64,000 nt of DNA, from assembly GCF_000027125.1 (NCBI RefSeq), contig NC_017626.1; one strand, given 5' to 3'. Origin of the DNA: Escherichia coli 042 (lineage in GTDB: Bacteria; Pseudomonadota; Gammaproteobacteria; Enterobacterales; Enterobacteriaceae). The notes under the pieces are model-generated. The model made no database searches. It saw nothing but the letters and a program-made list of their open reading frames with translations, and had not been told where the DNA came from. Below, one piece after another: positions 29,902 through 42,020 of this stretch (position 1 is its first letter; the number at the start of each line of letters is the position of its first letter). A program made the translations under genes and the position numbers.

Positions 29902-30050
29902 GACTCCTCCAGTGAGAAAACAGAGCAAAAAGATAAGTATAGATGCTGGGGGAGGGGCGATTTTAAATGAGAGGAATCTGGTGTGCCTCCCTTTCGGGGG
30001 AAAGGGAGGAAGGGATATTAAGCAGGTTGCTGACAACGTGCGGGCTTTTT

Positions 30051-30151
30051 TGCCGGATGCGGCGTGAACGCCTTATCCGTCCTACAAGTTCATGCAATTT
30101 TAATAAGTTGCCAGATATCCTGTAGGCCTGATAAGCGTAGCGCATCAGGCA
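30051..30151. repeat. BIME / REP pair between ybiO and glnQ
   Basis: tgccggatgcggcgtgaacgccttatccgtcctac and gtaggcctgataagcgtagcgcatcaggca in inverted orientation. Confidence 0.6.
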
Positions 30152-30161
30152 ATGTGTCTTA

Positions 30162-30884
30162 TTAAGAGACGTGCTGCAAAAATTCCTGCAAGCGCTGGCT
30201 CGGCGGGTTCTTGATCAACACCTGCGGATCGCCATCTTCCGCAATCCGGCCTTTGTCGATAAAGATAAGGCGCGAAGCTACTTTCTCGGCAAAACCGATT
30301 TCGTGGGTCACGATCACCATCGTCATCCCTTCTTCAGCCAGATCCTGCATAACCTTCAGCACTTCATGGCGCAGTTCCGGGTCAAGAGCGGAAGTCGGTT
30401 CATCAAACAGCATCATTTTCGGCTTCACCGCCAGCGCGCGGGCGATGGCCACACGCTGCTGTTGACCACCAGAAAGTTCGGAAGGGTAGTGATGTGCACG
30501 TTCTGCCAGACCGACTTTCGCCAGCAGCTCACGTGCCAGTTTTTCCGCCTCTTCTTTGTTCGCGCCACGCACGCGTAGCGGACCAAACATCACGTTTTCC
30601 AGCGCCGTCAGATGCGGGAAGAGGTAAAACTGCTGGAACACCATACCCGCTTCCTGGCGAATCAGGCGCTCGTCAACTTTCGGATCGTTAACCTTCAGGC
30701 CATCGACAATCAGATCGCCGGAGGTGATTTCTTCCAGTTTGTTGATGCAGCGCAGCAGGGTCGATTTACCGGAACCGGACGGCCCGATAATCACCACGAC
30801 TTCGCCCTGAGCAATGTTCAAATCGATATTGTGCAGCACCTGGGTTGGACCAAAATGCTTGGAGACGTTTTTAAATTCAATCAC
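30162..30884 (-). CDS. glnQ: Glutamine ABC transporter ATP-binding protein GlnQ
   Basis: 240 aa; GPSGSGKST Walker A, LSGGQQQR signature. Confidence 0.96.
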
Positions 30885-31540
30885 AGGATTTTCATCCTTC
30901 TTTCCAGACGACGCAGAATAAAGCTCAGCACCAGGGTAATAATCAGATAGAACACCGCCACGGCGCTCCAGATCTCAAGGGCGCGGAAGTTACCGGCAAT
31001 AATTTCTTGCCCCTGACGGGTCAGTTCCGCCACGCCGATCACAATAAACAGCGAGGTGTCTTTAATGCTGATGATCCACTGGTTACCCAGCGGCGGCAGC
31101 ATACGACGCAGTGCCAGCGGTAAAATGACGTAGCGAATGGTTTCCCAACGTGAAAGACCGAGCGCCAGTCCTGCTTCACGAAAACCTTTGTGAATAGACA
31201 GCACCGCACCACGCGTGATTTCCGCAATGTACGCGCCGGAGTTGATCATGATGGTGACCACCGCCGCAGTAAACGGGTCGATGCGTAAGTCGTTAAACGC
31301 CATCGGCAGGGCGAAATAGATAAACATCACCTGGACGACGATAGGTGTGCCGCGGATCACTTCAATAAAGACCAGCGCGACGTGGTTGGCTATCCAACCA
31401 CCGAAGGTGCGTGCAAAACCTGCCAGCAATCCGATCACCAGGCCGCCAGCCAGACCGAGGACCGAGATCCACAGGGTCATTTTGGCACCTTCAATCAGAA
31501 GCGGAATGGCAGGCCAGATGGCACTCCAGTCAAACTGCAT
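30881..31540 (-). CDS. glnP: Glutamine ABC transporter permease GlnP
   Basis: 219 aa; 4 bp overlap with glnQ start. Confidence 0.96.
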
Positions 31541-31590
31541 ATGTTGTTCCTGTTACCGTGGTGTAAATAATCAAATTCAGGGTAATTAAT

Positions 31591-31671
31591 GGCCCCGGAG
31601 CGGGTTTGCGCCCCTCACCCTAATCCTCTCCCCAGAGGGGAGAGGGAACTGCCAGTGCGCCTTACAGGCGT
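31591..31671. repeat. GC-rich palindromic intergenic element between glnP and glnH
   Basis: cctctccccagaggggagagg perfect hairpin inside a GC-rich block; no adjacent T-run on either strand. Confidence 0.3.
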
Positions 31672-31678
31672 AGCGTTA

Positions 31679-32440
<762 letters not shown>

Positions 32441-32479
32441 CTATCCACGGGACGATCCCCTGCGTGACATTCACATATA

Positions 32480-32495
32480 TGAAAAAATCGTGCCA
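32480..32495 (-). promoter_or_regulatory. Sigma-54 (-24/-12) promoter glnHp2
   Basis: Minus strand reads TGGCAC-gattt-TTTCA, about 55 bp upstream of the glnH start. Confidence 0.5.
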
Positions 32496-32536
32496 GTTTT
32501 GCAACTCATTGATTTATCGAGATGCGGTAAAAACGT

Positions 32537-32612
32537 GATGCACGATTTATAGGGCAATACCCTGAAGATGCACCATTCTGGGGCACCAAACTGGTGCGCT
32601 AAAATTGTGCAC
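32537..32612 (-). promoter_or_regulatory. NtrC enhancer sites upstream of glnHp2
   Basis: tgcaccattctggggca and gcaccaaactggtgcg match TGCACC-N5-GGTGCA half-site architecture. Confidence 0.5.
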
Positions 32613-32828
32613 TCAACACAGTGATTATTTAGCGTAAAACCTGATGAAAAAACAATCTTTATGTAACGATTGTGTGATGATGTGGATACAAAAAATTTAC
32701 TTAATCAGCTGGAGATAGCAGATGGATGCACTAAATAAGTGCGTTGAGGCGGGCTGCAAAACAAAACGGCCTCCTGTCAGGAAGCCGCTTTTATCGGGTA
32801 CTAAAGTTCTGCACCATCAGCGATGGAT

Positions 32829-33476
<648 letters not shown>

Positions 33477-33630
33477 TTAGGTATATTGATAAGAACAATT
33501 CTTATTTATTTGCTCGCCAGGAATTTTCGGAATAAATATGCTTTTGCATAATTCGATATATAAAGAATGTGTAGAGGAAAAGTAGCGAGAAATTCTGCAT
33601 GGTTATGCATAACCATGCAGAAGTGTAAAT

Positions 33631-34518
33631 TTAATTAATGTCTAATTCTTTTATTTTGCTCTCTTTGCGTACTGTCAGCGTAGAACCCATTGAAGCGGCG
33701 ATGATAGCGCCGAGCGCCAGCAGCTGTATGGGTGTCAGTGTTTCTCCGAGGAAAATCATCCCGGAAACGGCAGCCAGCGCCGGTTCCATGCTCATCAGCG
33801 TACCAAATGTCCGCGTTGGCAAACGGGTGAGGGCAATCATTTCCAGCGAATAAGGCAGAGCGGTCGAGAGAATAGCGACAGCCAGACCCAATGGAATAAC
33901 CGACCAGTGCCAGAGTGCTTCACCAGCCTGAAGCGCTCCAATTGGCACGAAAATTAACGCTGCAATCAACGAACCAATTGCCACCGTCGCAGGGCCATGT
34001 TCCGCTCCTGCGCGTTGCCCACTTAAAATGTAAATAGCCCAACAAGCCCCGGCCCCCAGTGCCAGCGCACAGCCGGTTAAATCGACATGGGAAACGTCTT
34101 GCCCCAGCGGTAGCAGGAACCACAGACCAAGAACCGCCAGCACAACCCAGACGAAATCTACCGGGCGACGAGAAGAGAACAGCGCCACCGCCAGTGGTCC
34201 GGTGAACTCCAGCGCCACCGCAATACCCAGCGGTACCGTCTGAATAGAAAGATAAAAAAGATAATTCATCCCACCCAGCGAAACGCCGTAAAACAACAGC
34301 GGTAATCGTTGCTCTTTGGCAAAGCGCAGTCGCCATGGCTTAAAGAACGCGATGAGGATAAGCGTTCCTAATGCCAGACGCAGCGCAGTGACACCCGGTG
34401 CACCCACCAGAGGAAAAAGTGACTTAGCTAACGAGGCTCCACCCTGAATAGACGCCATGGCGACGAGCAATATGACTATTGGTAACCAGACCGGCATTTT
34501 ACGTAATGAACCAGGCAT
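33631..34518 (-). CDS. rhtA: Threonine/homoserine exporter RhtA (DMT/EamA family)
   Basis: 295 aa from ATG 34518, 10-TM DMT-type protein. Confidence 0.92.
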   Translation of the reverse strand: MPGSLRKMPVWLPIVILLVAMASIQGGASLAKSLFPLVGAPGVTALRLALGTLILIAFFKPWRLRFAKEQRLPLLFYGVSLGGMNYLFYLSIQTVPLGIAVALEFTGPLAVALFSSRRPVDFVWVVLAVLGLWFLLPLGQDVSHVDLTGCALALGAGACWAIYILSGQRAGAEHGPATVAIGSLIAALIFVPIGALQAGEALWHWSVIPLGLAVAILSTALPYSLEMIALTRLPTRTFGTLMSMEPALAAVSGMIFLGETLTPIQLLALGAIIAASMGSTLTVRKESKIKELDIN

Positions 34519-34870
34519 CCTTTCTCCCACAAATATCTAAACCTAAGTAAAGCGTGGAGTGTACTGGATATACCCAATGCTGGTTGAGCATTTGTTGAAA
34601 AAATTTCCCCCCGTTTTGACTAAAATGCGCCAGGATTGATGGAATCATTAGTCTGATGATTAGGAATAATCTGGATGAATGACAGGGAAAACATGCGTAA
34701 TACTTACGCAGTTCTCTGAAAAAGTGATTTAAATTTAGATGGATAGCGGTGTATGGAAACGTTCTGTTACATGAAATGGCCCGTTAGACATCACAAATCG
34801 CGAAGAGTTTCCCATTAATTTTTGATATATTTAAAACTTAGGACTTATTTGAATCACATTTGAGGTGGTT

Positions 34871-35386
34871 ATGAAAAAAATTGCATGTCTTTCAGCACTG
34901 GCCGCAGTTCTGGCTTTCACCGCAGGTACTTCCGTAGCTGCGACTTCTACCGTAACTGGCGGTTACGCACAGAGCGACGCTCAGGGCCAAATGAACAAAA
35001 TGGGCGGTTTCAACCTGAAATACCGCTATGAAGAAGACAACAGCCCGCTGGGTGTGATCGGTTCTTTCACTTACACCGAGAAAAGCCGTACTGCAAGCTC
35101 TGGTGACTACAACAAAAACCAGTACTACGGCATCACTGCTGGTCCGGCTTACCGCATTAACGACTGGGCAAGCATCTACGGTGTAGTGGGTGTGGGTTAT
35201 GGTAAATTCCAGACCACTGAATACCCGACCTACAAACACGACACCAGCGACTACGGTTTCTCCTACGGTGCTGGTCTGCAGTTCAACCCGATGGAAAACG
35301 TTGCTCTGGACTTCTCTTACGAGCAGAGCCGTATTCGTAGCGTTGACGTAGGCACCTGGATTGCCGGTGTTGGTTACCGCTTCTAA
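34871..35386 (+). CDS. ompX: Outer membrane protein OmpX
   Basis: 171 aa from ATG 34871 with GAGGTGG RBS; signal peptide; C-terminal ...GYRF. Confidence 0.96.
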   Translation: MKKIACLSALAAVLAFTAGTSVAATSTVTGGYAQSDAQGQMNKMGGFNLKYRYEEDNSPLGVIGSFTYTEKSRTASSGDYNKNQYYGITAGPAYRINDWASIYGVVGVGYGKFQTTEYPTYKHDTSDYGFSYGAGLQFNPMENVALDFSYEQSRIRSVDVGTWIAGVGYRF

Positions 35387-35401
35387 TCACTTCGGTGATA
35401 T

Positions 35402-35436
35402 AAAAAATCCGCCTCTCGGGGCGGATTTTTTGTTTT
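35402..35436. terminator. Bidirectional rho-independent terminator shared by ompX and opgE
   Basis: aaaaaatccgcctctcggggcggattttttgtttt: GC stem flanked by an A-run and a T-run. Confidence 0.7.
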
Positions 35437-37018
35437 AAGGTTTCGGGTCGAAAATATCGGTTCCGAGATGGTTGTAATCCACCTTCTGTAACTGGAAGTT
35501 GGTGATGTATATCGGCCCGGCTTTCTTCTCAGATATAAACGGGTATTTGATGTTAATTTCCTTCGCTTTAATTCCCGTCCACTGGGAGAAAAAGCCTAAG
35601 AAGTCATTGGCAGAGCGGCGGGCTTTAATCACCCGATGCGCTTTATCGTCGCTCGAAATGACCATAAAAGGCACCTGGAAATTTTGCTGATATTTATCAT
35701 CATGGGCAAGGTATTGCACGTCTTTGCCGCGCTCTTTAAAGGCCAGACCGTGGTCAGAAAAGTAAACCAGCGAGAAGCTACTGCCGCTGTTGCGTAACTG
35801 ATCGTACAGCTTACGCAATAAATCGTCCGTTTGCGTCATGGTATAGAGATAGCACGACGTTTCTTTCGATTGCACAAAGGTTTCGTATTTGCCTTGTGTC
35901 CGGTCGCAGGCCTGCGGATGTGAGCCCATCAGATGTAAAACAATCAGCTGCGGTTGCGAGTGCTCTTGCGCCAGCACTTGAGCGGTCATATCCAGTAACG
36001 CTTCGTCTTTCGTGTTTTTATCTGCTTCAAAATTACCTTCTTTCAGGAAGTACACTTCATCTGCACGTTTGGCGATGCTGGCGATGGCGGTATCGTATTC
36101 GCCGATTTGACCCTGGTTGGAAAACCACCAGGTCTGGAAGCCCGCGCGATTTGCTAGGGTGACAAAGTTATCCTGAAACTGTGGTTTGCCATCGACTACG
36201 CGATTGAGCGTTAAGCCAAGCGATTTCTGCGTGGAGCCACTGGCGGCAATGTAGTCAGCAAATATCAAACCGTTAACACTGCTGGCAAACGGGGTATTGT
36301 TCCAGTGACCGCCAAAGGCACCGAGGGCATCGCGACGCGCGCTTTCACCGATCACCACCACATAGGTCTGATATTTCGGCTTAACGGCAGTGACCGTCCA
36401 GGTATCTTTCATTCCGGAAAGTTTTGCCATCCGTTCTTGCTCTTCAATCACCTCGTTATTATTGACGATGACATCCTTAGCAAAACGAAATACCGGATAG
36501 CCAGTATCTTTCAGTTTAAATACGCCGCCCCAGGCCAGGTTTTGCACGGGAGCAACAAAAAATGTCGCCACACTGAATACCAGACACAGGCTGTCGAAGG
36601 TATTCCAGCGCGCTTTTTCACTCTCTTTTTTTCGCCGGATTGCTATTACGCCGAGCGCAAAAATAAATAAGCCGACCAGGTAGCTGTACCACGGAAAAAT
36701 CGTCAGGATTTCGGTCGACTCTTCCATATTGGTGGAGTGCAATGCCAGCAATGTATTGAAATTAGGCGCGCCGTAGGCCTGAGCAAAAGGGAAATAACAA
36801 GCCGCCACCAGCGAACTGACACCGACCAGAACTTTTTGTACGCCAGGCAATGTTCGCCATAGCAAAAGCAAAATAGTCGTAAATGCGGCGGTGTAGAGCA
36901 AACTGAAGGGGTAACCTAAGCCGAGGTTAATTAATAGCGACTGTAAAAAGTAGAACGCAGTCCACGGGCTAAATACCCGGCTACGGGTAACAAGCGATTC
37001 TTTGAGGGTTAAATTCAT
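35435..37018 (-). CDS. opgE: Phosphoethanolamine transferase OpgE (YbiP)
   Basis: 527 aa; N-terminal TM domain plus sulfatase-like periplasmic domain. Confidence 0.92.
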   Translation of the reverse strand: MNLTLKESLVTRSRVFSPWTAFYFLQSLLINLGLGYPFSLLYTAAFTTILLLLWRTLPGVQKVLVGVSSLVAACYFPFAQAYGAPNFNTLLALHSTNMEESTEILTIFPWYSYLVGLFIFALGVIAIRRKKESEKARWNTFDSLCLVFSVATFFVAPVQNLAWGGVFKLKDTGYPVFRFAKDVIVNNNEVIEEQERMAKLSGMKDTWTVTAVKPKYQTYVVVIGESARRDALGAFGGHWNNTPFASSVNGLIFADYIAASGSTQKSLGLTLNRVVDGKPQFQDNFVTLANRAGFQTWWFSNQGQIGEYDTAIASIAKRADEVYFLKEGNFEADKNTKDEALLDMTAQVLAQEHSQPQLIVLHLMGSHPQACDRTQGKYETFVQSKETSCYLYTMTQTDDLLRKLYDQLRNSGSSFSLVYFSDHGLAFKERGKDVQYLAHDDKYQQNFQVPFMVISSDDKAHRVIKARRSANDFLGFFSQWTGIKAKEINIKYPFISEKKAGPIYITNFQLQKVDYNHLGTDIFDPKP

Positions 37019-37289
37019 ATGCCACTATCGTAACAAACGCCATGTGCTTACCCTGGCGTCAAGGGTTAATACCTGCAAGAGTGCGTGAAGAGGGGAAAGG
37101 GGTCCGCATCCGCGAGCCGCAATATACGCAGGGCTGCAAGAAGATAGAGCGAGCTGCCGTTCAGGTCAACTACTGACGAACAAATCTTTTGCGAAGGGGA
37201 TTGCAAATCCGACAAAAAGTGGGGTTTTTCAGACCAAAACGCGTCGTGCCTGCATAAAAGCAGGAGTGAAGCGGCGTACCGCGACGCCG

Positions 37290-37418
37290 CTATTTATCGG
37301 AAGGTTTATCTTGCTGCGGTTTGTTGTTGACCATATCGCACAACATAGAGAGCAGCATTAACCGTACTTTAAAGGGAGAATGACTAAACACGCGCATACA
37401 CCTCTTGAACTCATTCAT
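37290..37418 (-). CDS. mntS: Small protein MntS (42 aa; formerly sRNA RybA)
   Basis: Minus strand translates to MNEFKRCMRVFSHSPFKVRLMLLSMLCDMVNNKPQQDKPSDK; too short for the ORF track. Confidence 0.8.
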   Translation of the reverse strand: MNEFKRCMRVFSHSPFKVRLMLLSMLCDMVNNKPQQDKPSDK

Positions 37419-37476
37419 AAGACCTCCTGACTTGCTAATCCCGTCGATCCTTGAGGGATGATTGCATTACATACAG

Positions 37477-37494
37477 ATATAGCACAGGCTATAT
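37477..37494. promoter_or_regulatory. Candidate MntR operator upstream of mntS
   Basis: atatagcacaggctatat, ATAGC-N4-GCTAT palindrome about 60 bp upstream of the mntS start. Confidence 0.5.
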
Positions 37495-37603
37495 TATATA
37501 GCTATTGCTAAAACGTTAATTTTTTGTACCTTTGCAACTCTGGTTTACAATGTGCGCACGAAATGAGAACGCTATGTATGCGTCACCATAATGAGGAAGC
37601 ACA

Positions 37604-38071
37604 ATGAGTCGTCGCGCAGGTACGCCAACAGCAAAAAAAGTGACGCAGTTAGTGAACGTGGAAGAGCACGTTGAAGGGTTCCGCCAGGTCAGAGAGGCGC
37701 ATCGGCGCGAGCTTATTGATGATTACGTTGAGCTAATTTCTGACTTGATCAGGGAAGTGGGGGAAGCTCGTCAGGTGGACATGGCTGCTCGTCTGGGGGT
37801 TTCGCAACCGACGGTGGCGAAAATGCTTAAGCGGCTGGCAACCATGGGGCTGATTGAAATGATCCCCTGGCGTGGCGTGTTTTTAACGGCAGAAGGAGAG
37901 AAACTGGCGCAGGAAAGCCGCGAGCGACATCAGATAGTCGAAAATTTCTTGTTGGTGTTGGGCGTCAGTCCGGAAATCGCCCGTCGCGACGCGGAAGGCA
38001 TGGAGCACCATGTTAGTGAAGAGACGCTGGATGCCTTTCGTTTGTTTACCCAGAAACACGGTGCCAAATGA
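37604..38071 (+). CDS. mntR: Manganese-responsive regulator MntR (DtxR family)
   Basis: 155 aa; DtxR-type HTH. Confidence 0.95.
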
Positions 38072-39186
38072 GCCTGCCTTTTTTACGCACGCTGCAAGGC
38101 GATCGTTTTTTTCAGTTATTAATTCTTGTTGGCATCGGATTAAGTTTTTTCGTTCCCTTTGCACCGAAATCCTGGCCTGCTGCTATCGACTGGCACACCA
38201 TCATCACCTTAAGCGGCCTGATGCTGCTGACCAAAGGTGTGGAGCTAAGCGGTTATTTTGATGTGCTGGGGCGCAAAATGGTGCGCCGCTTTGCTACGGA
38301 GCGTCGGCTGGCGATGTTTATGGTGCTGGCGGCGGCGCTGCTTTCTACCTTTCTGACCAACGATGTCGCGCTGTTTATAGTTGTTCCGCTGACTATCACG
38401 CTAAAAAGACTGTGTGAGATCCCGGTTAATCGGCTGATTATTTTTGAGGCGCTGGCAGTCAACGCTGGTTCGCTACTGACGCCAATTGGCAACCCGCAAA
38501 ATATTCTTATCTGGGGACGTTCTGGTCTTTCGTTTGCCGGATTTATTGCCCAAATGGCACCGCTGGCTGGCGCAATGATGCTGACGTTCCTGCTCCTGTG
38601 CTGGTGTTGTTTCCCTGGAAAGGCGCTGCAATACCATACGGGGGTGCAAACGCCGGAGTGGAAACCGCGGCTGGTGTGGAGTTGTCTGGGGCTGTATATC
38701 GTCTTTCTGATGGCGCTGGAGTTAAAACAAGAGCTGTGGGGACTGGTGATTGTGGCGGTGGGCTTTACGCTGCTGGCACGTCGCGTGGTGCTCAGTGTGG
38801 ACTGGACGCTGCTGCTGGTGTTTATGGCGATGTTTATCGACGTCCATTTACTAACCCAACTGCCAGCTTTGCAGGGGGTGTTAAGTAACGTGAGTCATTT
38901 ATCCGAACCCGGATTATGGTTAACGGCGATTGGTTTATCACAGGTGATCAGTAACGTGCCGAGTACCATATTGTTGCTGAACTATGTGCCGCCGTCGTTG
39001 CTGCTGGCATGGGCGGTAAACGTGGGGGGCTTTGGTTTATTACCCGGATCGCTGGCAAATTTGATTGCGTTACGGATGGCGAACGATCGCCGTATCTGGT
39101 GGCGTTTCCATCTCTATTCAATACCGATGCTGTTGTGGGCGGCGCTGGTGGGATACGTTTTATTCGTTATGCTCCCGGCCTGGTAA
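38068..39186 (+). CDS. ybiR: Inner membrane transporter YbiR
   Basis: 372 aa polytopic membrane protein; start overlaps the mntR stop (ATGA). Confidence 0.92.
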
Positions 39187-39244
39187 GGTCTGGCCAAATA
39201 AAAAAGGCGGATGATGAGTCCGCCTCTGTTTTACGTTTTCACGA

Positions 39245-40165
39245 TTAATTCAGACGAACCGGCATCCCGGAACGATTTTTGATCGCTTCATCCAGAACAA
39301 CCTGGTCAACATCAGGCTGACCGGTCACTGTCTGCACACTCTTCGTCAGGGTAATTGGCACAATTTCCTGACCTTCAAACTGGGCTTCGGTGGTAGACAG
39401 CGGGTTATGGACTTCAATATAACGGCTGCCGTCTGGCTCGGTGGTCGCTTTTACCGGCTCATCAATAAACTGTACGCGGGTACCGACCGGCACTTTCTCG
39501 AACAGGAATTTGATGTCTTCGTTACGCAGACGCACACAACCATGACTTACGCGCAGGCCGATACCGAAGTTGGCGTTGGTGCCATGGATTGCGTACAGGC
39601 GACCGATGTAGAGTGCATACAGACCCATCGGGTTATCCGGACCTGCCGGAACGACAGCCGGAAGCGGTTCGCCCGCAGCGCGGTACTCTGCGTGCATTTT
39701 AGCGGTTGGCGTCCAGGTCGGGCCTGCTTTCTTACGCTCAACTTTGGTGGTCCAGTTGATAGGCGTGTCTTTGCCTAACTGACCAATGCCGATCGGCAGC
39801 ACGATAACGGTGTTGGTCCCTTTCGGATAGTAATACAGACGCATCTCTGCACTGTTAATGACGATGCCTTCATGAACGGTATCCGGCAGGATCAGCTGCT
39901 GCGGAATGTTCAGTACAGTACCGCCTTTCGGCAGGAAGGTATCCACACCCGGGTTCGCTTCCATCATATTGGAAAGCCCCATCTGGTACTCGGCGGCAAA
40001 ATACTCCAGCGGCTGAGTGTTACCTTCAGGAATGGTGATCACCTGATTCTGACCAACCAGGCGACTCCCGTCGGTTGGCAGAGGATAAGTTACCGCAGAG
40101 GCGGTACTGCAAAAGCCGACAACAGCGAAGGCCGCTGCGAATAATGTTTTCAATTTCATATTCAT
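39245..40165 (-). CDS. ldtB: L,D-transpeptidase LdtB (YbiS)
   Basis: 306 aa; signal peptide; YkuD catalytic region with Cys in ...RVSHGCVRL... Confidence 0.94.
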
Positions 40166-40383
40166 GTTAAGCGAGATTTTGTGCCTGGCAGGCCATTGGG
40201 TTGAGAATATTAGAGTATTGGAAGCGCATTATAAGTTCATTCCAGCTCACAGTGAAATCAGATGTGTACGAAATCACATTTTTTGCCTTTGGCTTGAGTG
40301 TAGACCTTAAGCGAGGAGCAGGATCTTCTTTCAGACTTATGGCATAATGCGCGGTTTGTCATATCTCTTTTCAGGATACGCCT

Positions 40384-41976
40384 GTGTTAGTTTCCAGTAA
40401 CGTCACCATGCAGTTCGGCAGTAAGCCGTTGTTTGAAAACATTTCCGTCAAATTTGGCGGCGGCAACCGTTACGGCCTGATTGGCGCGAACGGTAGTGGT
40501 AAATCCACCTTTATGAAGATCCTCGGCGGCGACTTAGAGCCGACGTTGGGTAACGTTTCCCTCGATCCCAACGAGCGCATTGGTAAGCTGCGTCAGGATC
40601 AGTTTGCCTTTGAAGAGTTCACTGTGCTGGATACGGTGATCATGGGGCATAAAGAATTGTGGGAAGTGAAGCAGGAGCGTGACCGCATCTATGCTTTGCC
40701 GGAAATGAGTGAGGAAGACGGCTATAAAGTGGCCGATCTGGAAGTGAAATACGGCGAAATGGACGGTTACTCTGCGGAAGCTCGCGCCGGTGAACTGTTG
40801 CTTGGCGTGGGAATTCCAGTGGAACAGCACTACGGCCCGATGAGTGAAGTTGCTCCTGGCTGGAAGCTGCGTGTGCTGCTGGCGCAGGCGCTGTTTGCTG
40901 ATCCGGACATTCTCCTGCTCGACGAACCGACCAACAACCTCGACATCGACACCATTCGCTGGCTGGAACAGGTGCTGAACGAGCGTGACAGCACCATGAT
41001 CATCATCTCGCACGACCGTCACTTCCTTAACATGGTTTGTACCCACATGGCGGATCTGGATTACGGCGAGCTCCGCGTTTATCCAGGTAACTACGATGAG
41101 TACATGACGGCGGCGACCCAGGCGCGTGAGCGTCTGCTGGCTGATAACGCCAAGAAGAAAGCGCAGATTGCTGAGCTGCAATCTTTCGTTAGCCGCTTTA
41201 GCGCCAACGCCTCGAAATCTCGCCAGGCAACTTCGCGCGCGCGCCAGATTGATAAAATCAAACTGGAAGAGGTGAAAGCCTCCAGCCGTCAGAACCCGTT
41301 CATCCGTTTTGAACAGGATAAGAAACTGTTCCGTAACGCGCTGGAAGTGGAAGGTCTGACCAAAGGGTTTGATAACGGTCCGCTGTTTAAAAATCTCAAC
41401 CTGCTGCTGGAAGTCGGTGAAAAACTGGCGGTACTGGGTACCAACGGCGTCGGTAAATCAACGCTGCTGAAAACGCTGGTGGGCGATCTGCAACCGGACA
41501 GCGGCACCGTAAAATGGTCTGAGAACGCGCGCATTGGTTACTACGCCCAGGACCATGAATATGAGTTCGAAAATGATCTGACCGTGTTCGAATGGATGAG
41601 CCAGTGGAAGCAGGAAGGCGATGACGAGCAGGCGGTACGCAGCATTCTCGGTCGTTTACTGTTCAGCCAGGACGACATCAAAAAGCCAGCGAAAGTGCTT
41701 TCCGGTGGGGAGAAAGGGCGGATGCTGTTTGGTAAGTTAATGATGCAGAAGCCGAACATTCTGATCATGGACGAACCAACCAACCACCTGGATATGGAAT
41801 CTATTGAGTCGCTGAACATGGCGCTGGAACTGTATCAGGGCACGCTGATCTTTGTTTCACACGACCGTGAGTTTGTAAGCTCCCTGGCGACCCGTATTCT
41901 GGAAATCACCCCGGAACGCGTGATCGACTTTAGCGGTAATTACGAAGATTACCTGCGTAGTAAAGGGATCGAGTAA
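40384..41976 (+). CDS. ybiT: ABC-F family ATPase YbiT
   Basis: 530 aa; two Walker A motifs ([18 protein letters not shown]), no TM domain. Confidence 0.95.
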
Positions 41977-42020
41977 GTTATTATCAGTAGCCCTGATATG
42001 GTCAGGGCTACTGAAACTGA

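Follow-up and report, generated by a model that had tools for sequence, protein, structure and literature searches.

The mntS-mntR locus of Escherichia coli 042: a small MntP inhibitor behind two MntR-type boxes, most likely derived from the 5′ end of sitA

MntS of Escherichia coli is a 42-amino-acid protein whose gene is repressed by MntR in complex with manganese (PMC4361602; PMC11647493), a relationship that is also curated in RegulonDB as repression of mntS by MntR under Mn treatment (PMC4207228). A PmntS-eGFP fusion is repressed by Mn only in the presence of mntR, repression being lost in an mntR mutant and regained on complementation (PMC9806134). MntS tagged on the chromosome is detected when Mn is limiting, the overexpression phenotype is lost with either of two mntS frameshift alleles, and the effect is independent of hfq (PMC4361602). 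MntS binds and inhibits the Mn exporter MntP, and it is homologous to SitA's signal peptide, with a proposed derivation from MntR-linked SitA (bioRxiv 10.1101/2023.06.02.543501). SgrT works on the same principle, as an inhibitor of fewer than 50 amino acids that is made under a specific stress and acts on a membrane transporter, an analogy taken from PMC4361602; unlike in sequence, target and regulator, the two proteins share a mode of action and not a family. In K-12 MG1655 the mntS locus is annotated twice, as the CDS mntS (b4705) and as the ncRNA rybA (b4416), with mntS inside the rybA RNA and divergent from mntR. RybA comprises seven RNAs that share one 5′ end and range in size from 205 to ~400 nt (PMC4361602).

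We compared these systems with a 64-kb stretch (64,000 nucleotides) of E. coli 042, hereafter the window, in which the genes are ordered glnHPQ, dps, rhtA, yliM, ompX, opgE, mntS, mntR, ybiR, ldtB and ybiT. We are highly confident that it contains the E. coli mntS-mntR locus, encoding an MntR-controlled small inhibitor of MntP that most likely came from the 5′ end of sitA. The window is 99.0-99.5% identical overall to the closest complete E. coli genomes. Of 5,426 complete E. coli genomes, ~5,400 contain its 1.1-kb mntS region, and the genome records listed annotate mntS and mntR at this match. The K-12 locus has the same neighbours (opgE, mntS, mntR, ybiR). An ungapped alignment that begins at the mntR start codon and ends at the mntS terminator contains 4 substitutions in 381 bp, of which one lies in the mntR-proximal intergenic DNA and three downstream of the terminator hairpin. 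None falls in the ORF, the leader or the boxes, so the ORF, leader, both MntR boxes and terminator hairpin are the same base for base, and the protein residue for residue. In the window, in K-12 and in nine other genera, ybiR-mntR is divergent from mntS and opgE is next on the mntS strand. The mntR gene, for an Mn-sensing DtxR-family repressor, is located at 37604..38071 on the plus strand, in agreement with the annotation. Its product scores 269 bits against NCBIfam NF008273 (cutoff 153) and contains the Pfam domains Fe_dep_repress and Fe_dep_repr_C.

The mntS CDS occupies 37290..37418 on the minus strand and runs from an ATG through 42 codons to a TAG stop, encoding MNEFKRCMRVFSHSPFKVRLMLLSMLCDMVNNKPQQDKPSDK. 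The earlier note, made from the letters alone, had assigned this ORF to mntS, and the assignment holds: the translation is exact, the protein matches the NCBIfam equivalog model NF033226 (small_MntS) over residues 1-39 (96 bits, cutoff 36, E 6e-28), and the gene is identical to K-12 mntS (b4705). A strong Shine-Dalgarno sequence, AGGAGG, can be read at 37423..37428 on the same strand, 4 nt upstream of the ATG. A GGAGG-type motif occupies this position in all ten genera aligned, across which the Shine-Dalgarno, start and stop are kept. Invariant columns in the ten-genus DNA alignment number 22, 29 and 7 of 43 at codon positions 1, 2 and 3, respectively. Since third positions vary most, selection acts on the protein. 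Two antisense ORFs over mntS, 37266-37361 and 37321-37383 on the plus strand, were rejected as chance ORFs; the codon-position conservation fits the minus-strand frame. The 37290-37418 ORF is MntS, a real protein-coding gene. It appears in an ORF list with a minimum of 20 aa and is missing from one with a 60-aa cut-off because of its length alone. The earlier note had also argued that genes of fewer than 60 aa exist in the window outside its ORF track, which is borne out by mntS (42 aa) and yliM (21 aa). The latter, at 34753-34818 on the plus strand, is the second annotated short gene in the window.

Database searches place this protein in a very narrow family. Among 5.8 billion proteins, a word-indexed search found 136 relatives; all 120 listed carry the Pfam MntS domain PF26599 in their precomputed annotation and are 38-72 aa long, and, generic hypothetical or uncharacterised labels aside, every one of the 120 that is named by its source is called MntS. 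The listed relatives come from Escherichia, Shigella, Salmonella, Citrobacter, Klebsiella, Enterobacter, Kosakonia, Kluyvera, Trabulsiella and Silvania. Our own Pfam-A scan of the 42-aa protein gave no match, and the copy scanned apparently lacked PF26599. Since this domain is present in the precomputed annotation of the homologues, the null result reflects a gap in the library and is no evidence against membership. Run as a profile, exhaustively and in a single pass, against 1.84 billion representatives, the MntS alignment recovered 32 proteins only, all of them short and with no full-length SitA among them, which is why we describe the family as very narrow. Sixteen representatives share 19 invariant residues (M1, N2, E3, K5, R6, C7, V10, F11, H13, S14, P15, F16, V18, R19, L20, L22, K33, P34 and P39). 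MntS of the window has the form of the family, a stand-alone protein of ~40-44 aa with the core MNEFKRC...VFSHSPFKVRLML...C and a polar C-terminus, lacking an A-x-A motif and a fused binding domain.

Upstream of mntS, the plus strand at 37477-37494 reads ATATAGCACAGGCTATAT, a perfect 7-N4-7 palindrome (ATATAGC-N4-GCTATAT) that contains MntR box 1, ATAGC-CTGT-GCTAT, at 37479..37492. The dyad symmetry had been pointed out in the earlier note as ATAGC-N4-GCTAT and is confirmed as perfect. This motif has two exact matches in the 64-kb window, at 37479 and at 33382, against a chance expectation of 0.05 in 64 kb from dinucleotide-preserving shuffles; none of 100 shuffles contained two matches. Using an inverted-repeat finder and a search allowing one mismatch, we found a further box, absent from the earlier note, so that there are two boxes and not one. 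Box 2 reads TTAGC-AATA-GCTAT on the minus strand and lies at 37498..37511, with one mismatch and a centre-to-centre distance of 19 bp from box 1. Across the ten genera, 13 of the 14 columns of box 1 are invariant and 12 of the 14 of box 2, where the variable columns are the first base of the N4 spacer (A or C) and one position of the GCTAT half-site that is changed in Enterobacter only. The 7 bp next downstream of the boxes are invariant throughout (7/7). Mean column identity in the ten genera is 0.96-0.99 for the boxes, 0.83 for the mntS CDS and 0.64-0.77 for the flanking non-coding DNA; the boxes are more conserved than both the coding sequence and the neighbouring non-coding DNA.

The same motif recurs across the MntR regulon. 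The other exact match in the window (33382-33395) overlaps the -10-like hexamer TATACT ~50 nt ahead of the dps start codon; dps is among the reported targets of MntR (Yamamoto 2011, cited in PMC5553809; PMC4207228). K-12 mntH has one perfect ATAGC-N4-GCTAT box just upstream, and K-12 mntP has a perfect box and a one-mismatch (TTAGC) box ~370-420 bp upstream of its start codon. The ATAGC-N4-GCTAT box is thereby present at every MntR regulon promoter checked (mntS, dps, mntH and mntP), and the consensus of six sites is A-n-ATAGC-N4-GCTAT-n-T. The mntH repeat of Patzer & Hantke reportedly agrees with ATAGC-N4-GCTAT; an explicit MntR consensus was not found in the literature searched. The promoters differ in how the boxes are arranged. 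Both mntP and mntS pair a perfect box with a one-mismatch TTAGC box; however, the mntP boxes are 40 bp apart and far upstream of a gene that MntR activates, whereas those of mntS are 19 bp apart and within the core promoter, which fits repression. In contrast to the two boxes of mntS, only one promoter-proximal box is present at mntH and at dps. The claim of the earlier note that the dyad is of the MntR type is upheld by the recurrence of the motif at dps, mntH and mntP and by its near-invariance (13/14) in ten genera. Taken together, the comparisons support the two boxes as an MntR-type operator of mntS, and from motif sharing, conservation and secondary citations we infer that MntR binds these exact bases.

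A strict scan for sigma-70 promoters and terminators called neither on the minus strand at mntS. Since a promoter and a terminator, each weaker but conserved, exist there, the thresholds of the strict scan are too stringent. Conservation points to two candidates for the promoter. Candidate A has the -10 element TGTAAT at 37466..37471 (minus strand), a predicted start at ~37459 and no recognisable -35 element. Its -10 matches TATAAT at 5-6 of 6 positions in the ten genera, being TATAAT itself in Citrobacter, and a -10-like element is retained at this position in the sitA loci L014 and L017 described below. An RNA from 37459 to the end of the terminator tail at 37255 would be 205 nt long, the size of the shortest RybA species (PMC4361602), and transcription may start near 37459. 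Candidate B, at 37493..37519 on the minus strand, combines TTAACG (37514-37519) with TATAAT (37493-37498) over a 15-nt spacer, is preceded by an A6 tract and has a predicted start at ~37485. The K-12 RefSeq 5′ end of rybA (853064) maps to the same position, 37485. TTAACG is invariant across the genera, and 4-6 of the 6 positions of the -10 match; candidate B is not retained in the sitA loci (L014 compared). A literature search on the K-12 coordinates of the candidate starts returned unrelated matches only, and the mntS start is ambiguous between ~37459 (A) and ~37485 (B). The boxes lie at -20 to -33 and -39 to -52 relative to the candidate A start, and at -7 to +6 and -13 to -26 relative to the candidate B start. 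Since they overlap the core promoter for either start, repression by occlusion is likely. Projected through the offset of the ungapped alignment, the rybA RNA as annotated in K-12 RefSeq (b4416, K-12 852725-853064) covers 37146..37485 on the minus strand; the RefSeq 5′ end is inconsistent with the reported 205-nt transcript.

At the other end of the transcript, a terminator hairpin, GCGGCGT-CGCGGT-ACGCCGC, lies at 37271..37290 on the minus strand; its first base is the last of the mntS stop codon, and a weak T-tail extends to ~37253. The GC-rich stem has 7-8 bp (8 bp in the fold) and is kept in 9 of the 10 genera, the only changes being in the loop or yielding a wobble pair. The tail in E. coli, TTCACTCCTGCTTTT, is a poor T-tract compared with TTCATTTTT in other genera, and this degenerate tail explains why the strict scan left the terminator uncalled. 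A terminator with a weak T-tail would fit the RybA ladder, leakiness yielding the longer species. At the 5′ end of the leader, the minimum-free-energy fold includes a hairpin (ATCCCTC...GACGGGAT, 37438..37459, minus strand) of which RNAalifold keeps five pairs, two with compensatory changes, which gives weak to moderate grounds for regarding it as real. The fold of the whole transcript is unexceptional relative to shuffled sequence (z = -1.2), and we therefore make no claim of a structured RNA. An Rfam search of 36900-37700 found no family at E <= 1. Conserved RNA structure at rybA beyond mRNA elements amounts to the five-pair leader hairpin and the terminator.

On the opposite strand, we propose a candidate mntR promoter at 37524..37551 (plus strand), where the conservation of the hexamers points to TTGTAC and TACAAT separated by a 16-nt spacer. 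The -35 element is TTGTGC in the nine other genera, the -10 is TACAAT in 9 of 10, and the spacer varies freely. The MntR boxes fall at ~-47 to -79 relative to the predicted mntR start.

The published derivation from SitA was recovered here independently, and the relation of mntS to sitA extends from the protein to the promoter. SitA proteins of Rahnella, Rouxiella, Ewingella, Hafnia and Affinibrenneria have both PF01297 and PF26599. MntR-linked SitA, a YfeA-type periplasmic protein that binds Mn/Fe (Rahnella, Rouxiella, Ewingella and Affinibrenneria), shares with MntS the core F/L-S-x-S-P-F-x-(V/L)-R-L-M-L-(L/V), the PF26599 domain and a divergent mntR. A distant profile match, P0145, is a 50-aa protein, MENGRHILKLFSHSPFRLRLMLVGMIVALITGNAQA followed by ADQ..., in locus L014, in which an mntR-like gene is divergent from the P0145 ORF and this ORF abuts a ZnuA-domain ORF and then sitBCD-type genes. 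The two ORFs of L014 are split by a 1-nt slip in an A9 run alone, and an intact 317-aa version of this type of SitA exists (P0150). BLASTP aligns MntS with the reconstructed SitA at 37% identity over 35 aa (E 2e-9). SitA N-termini align with MntS through S-P-F-x-(V/L)-R-L-M-L and then diverge: SitA goes on with a hydrophobic helix, then an A-x-A cleavage site and then a ZnuA domain of ~270 aa, whereas MntS has a polar C-D...KPQQDKPS tail instead. The mntS ORF itself, which stops after 42 codons and has no A-x-A, is not a SitA/YfeA (PF01297) protein and is a homologue of the signal-peptide segment only. Using tblastn, we found no remnants of the mature SitA domain (ZnuA) or of sitBCD near or downstream of E. 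coli mntS, the sitB matches being generic ABC ATPases.

Promoters of MntR-linked sitA genes and the mntS promoter have box 1 and the ATCTGTAT block in common. The L014 sitA promoter contains the 14-mer ATAGCCTGTGCTAT, identical to box 1, and, offset by 19 bp as in mntS, a degenerate second box; this locus also carries the CATTGTAAACCA block of the mntR promoter. In L017, from Affinibrenneria, ATAGCCTATGCTAT is followed by ATCTGTAT. The sitBCD genes follow sitA in L014 and do not follow it in L017. This pattern supports homology at the DNA level between the twin-box promoter module and the sitA promoters of two Rahnella/Affinibrenneria-type loci, and such homology in turn supports the published origin of MntS from a SitA signal peptide. 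A text search of the preprint (bioRxiv 10.1101/2023.06.02.543501) for "MntR bind" returned nothing, and homology of the regulatory DNA is not discussed there. Judging from these alignments, mntS most likely descends from the 5′ end of sitA, comprising the signal peptide and the MntR-controlled promoter.

Other readings of the ORF were weighed against this descent of a functional small gene. In one of them RybA is chiefly a regulatory small RNA, with the 42-codon ORF as an incidental feature. The K-12 region is annotated as the ncRNA rybA, one study describes RybA as repressing aroF and aroL, by way of TyrR, during peroxide stress (Gerstle 2012, cited in PMC11878033 and PMC4361602), and the leader hairpin has two compensatory pairs. 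However, the variation at third codon positions indicates selection on a protein, ten genera keep the Shine-Dalgarno, start and stop, the transcript folds no better than z = -1.2 and has no Rfam family, and the published work found that frameshift mutants lose the Mn phenotype, that the effect is hfq-independent and that the tagged protein is detected (PMC4361602). We consider an incidental ORF very improbable. Given the regulatory role that this one study assigns to RybA, the protein may not be the sole product of the transcript, and a dual function as protein and RNA is a possibility of some substance, though a minority one in our estimate. The ORF might instead be a decaying, non-functional remnant of a sitA signal peptide, as MntS aligns with SitA N-termini and the 1-nt slip in L014 yields a comparable stand-alone 50-aa fragment. 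Against such a pseudogene fragment, a length of 41-44 aa, the Shine-Dalgarno and 19 invariant residues are kept across ten or more genera, where most changes are silent; the A-x-A motif has been lost and a conserved polar tail gained, with no debris of the mature SitA domain downstream; and phenotypes (PMC4361602) and MntP binding (bioRxiv 10.1101/2023.06.02.543501) have been published. This makes decay extremely improbable, and MntS as a functional protein remains our reading of the ORF.

The dyad, too, could have another explanation, as a chance AT-rich palindrome or the site of another regulator. It lies in an AT-rich region overlapping -10-like hexamers, and the promoter itself could explain some of the conservation. 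Yet there are two exact matches where 0.05 are expected, both at known MntR targets, with the motif found also at mntH and mntP; in the Enterobacteriaceae the half-sites are fixed bar one Enterobacter change, while the first spacer base of box 2 alternates between A and C; in other families the box is still found upstream of sitA genes linked to mntR; and the reporter has no Mn control in an mntR mutant (PMC9806134). There is hardly any chance, in our judgement, that the dyad is something other than an MntR operator. What the twin boxes control is a separate matter, and they might act on the divergent mntR promoter as well as, or instead of, mntS. They are situated between mntS and mntR, ~-47 to -79 from the conserved candidate mntR promoter, and MntR activates mntP (PMC4207228), where the boxes lie ~370-420 bp upstream of the start codon. 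On the other side, the candidate mntR core promoter lies clear of the boxes, no report of autoregulation of E. coli mntR was found in the literature searched, and autoregulation would supplement repression of mntS and not replace it. We regard such control of mntR as decidedly unlikely. A broader scheme joins several of these ideas: the twin boxes would be an ancestral sitA control module inherited whole and acting in both directions (tuning mntR), a leaky terminator would couple opgE to Mn, and the RybA RNA would have a role of its own. This too seems to us unlikely, though a little less so, and among its parts only the DNA-level homology to sitA promoters is supported here.

With the boxes read as an MntR operator of mntS and the ORF as an MntP inhibitor, the locus would work as follows. 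When Mn is plentiful, Mn-MntR would occupy both boxes and shut off mntS while repressing mntH and activating mntP; MntR dimers on box 1 and box 2 would presumably block RNA polymerase. Under Mn scarcity, transcription and efficient translation of mntS yield MntS, which inhibits MntP and so raises intracellular Mn. Mn-dependent self-association of MntS, which has been published, may then end the inhibition of MntP (bioRxiv 10.1101/2023.06.02.543501; PMC4361602).

The gene mntS, its control by MntR, its action on MntP and its proposed origin from sitA were already published, and nothing new is established here for the biology of E. coli. The locus serves as a positive control, since a small protein and its operator were correctly recognised from raw sequence without tools. 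It also illustrates how real genes escape a 60-aa ORF threshold, as mntS and yliM both do in this one window. Added here are a candidate mntR promoter, the mismatch between the annotated rybA 5′ end and the 205-nt transcript, and the two-box anatomy with cross-genus conservation figures. Evidence for homology of the mntS and sitA promoters at the DNA level is a further addition, and it strengthens the published model in which a signal peptide gave rise to a small protein.

The K-12 RefSeq annotation of rybA, the transcript that carries mntS, is 340 nt long and its 5' end projects to window position 37485, within the first MntR box (37479-37492). This conflicts with the shortest published RybA transcript, which is 205 nt (PMC4361602) and would start at ~37459 if its 3' end follows the terminator tail. 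Each candidate start has its own conserved -10-like hexamer, one for 37459 and another for 37485. The mntS leader has a small minus-strand hairpin at its beginning (37438-37459; ATCCCTC...GACGGGAT). This hairpin persists across ten genera (E. coli and nine other enterobacterial genera), with compensatory changes at two of its five pairs, and it might stabilize the 5' end of the transcript. The same-strand gene downstream of mntS is opgE in all ten genera (window 37018-37290 and loci L005-L013), at a distance of ~270 nt in E. coli. The T-tract of the E. coli mntS terminator is degenerate. Of the RybA species described so far, the longest (~400 nt; PMC4361602) would extend to roughly the opgE start. 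Coupling of mntS and opgE by terminator read-through is possible.

On the plus strand, hexamer conservation across the ten genera points to a candidate mntR promoter, TTGTAC-16-TACAAT (37524-37551). Its -35 element reads TTGTAC in E. coli and TTGTGC in the other nine genera, while the -10 element is TACAAT in nine of the ten and TACACT in one; the spacer is free to vary while the hexamers are kept. Both MntR boxes are located ~47-79 bp upstream of the predicted mntR start, a placement that makes mntR autoregulation through them possible. Within the 64-kb window, the only other exact ATAGC-N4-GCTAT box is found at 33382-33395, where the minus strand reads ATAGCCGGTGCTAT. There it overlaps a TATACT -10-like hexamer, ~50 nt ahead of the minus-strand start codon of dps at 33332. 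Since dps is counted among MntR targets in two published papers (PMC5553809, PMC4207228), this box is very likely a dps operator for MntR.

MntS is not the only short gene here: yliM, a 21-codon plus-strand ORF (METFCYMKWPVRHHKSRRVSH; 34753-34818) just upstream of ompX, carries an annotation in RefSeq genomes including that of K-12 and is a second real gene in the window under the 60-aa threshold. A local Pfam-A scan assigned MntS to no family. Such negatives from the local library should not be over-read for very short proteins, because PF26599 ("MntS") is present in the precomputed annotations of all 120 MntS homologues listed, of 136 found, and also of SitA N-termini. Among 5,426 complete E. 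coli genomes, most are 95-99% identical to the window and the best matches reach 99.0% (12 kb, 30000-42000) and 99.5% (1.1 kb), so its lineage has no close representative in this set.

Two sitA loci may bear on the origin of mntS. In a metagenomic Rahnella-like contig (L014, 1859-2811), an A9 homopolymer marks the point where sitA is broken in two, giving a 50-aa MntS-like ORF and a 267-aa ZnuA-domain ORF; the break is due to a natural frameshift or to a slip in sequencing. The 50-aa product is present on two contigs, and an unbroken 317-aa allele (P0150) also exists. Either way, the split mimics the proposed birth of mntS. In Affinibrenneria salicis (L017, 1601-3430), mntR is divergent from a sitA that encodes an MntS-like signal peptide and has no sitBCD genes downstream. 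Here the MntR box precedes the ATG of sitA by ~305 nt, which points to a long leader. The locus could be an intermediate between sitABCD and stand-alone mntS.
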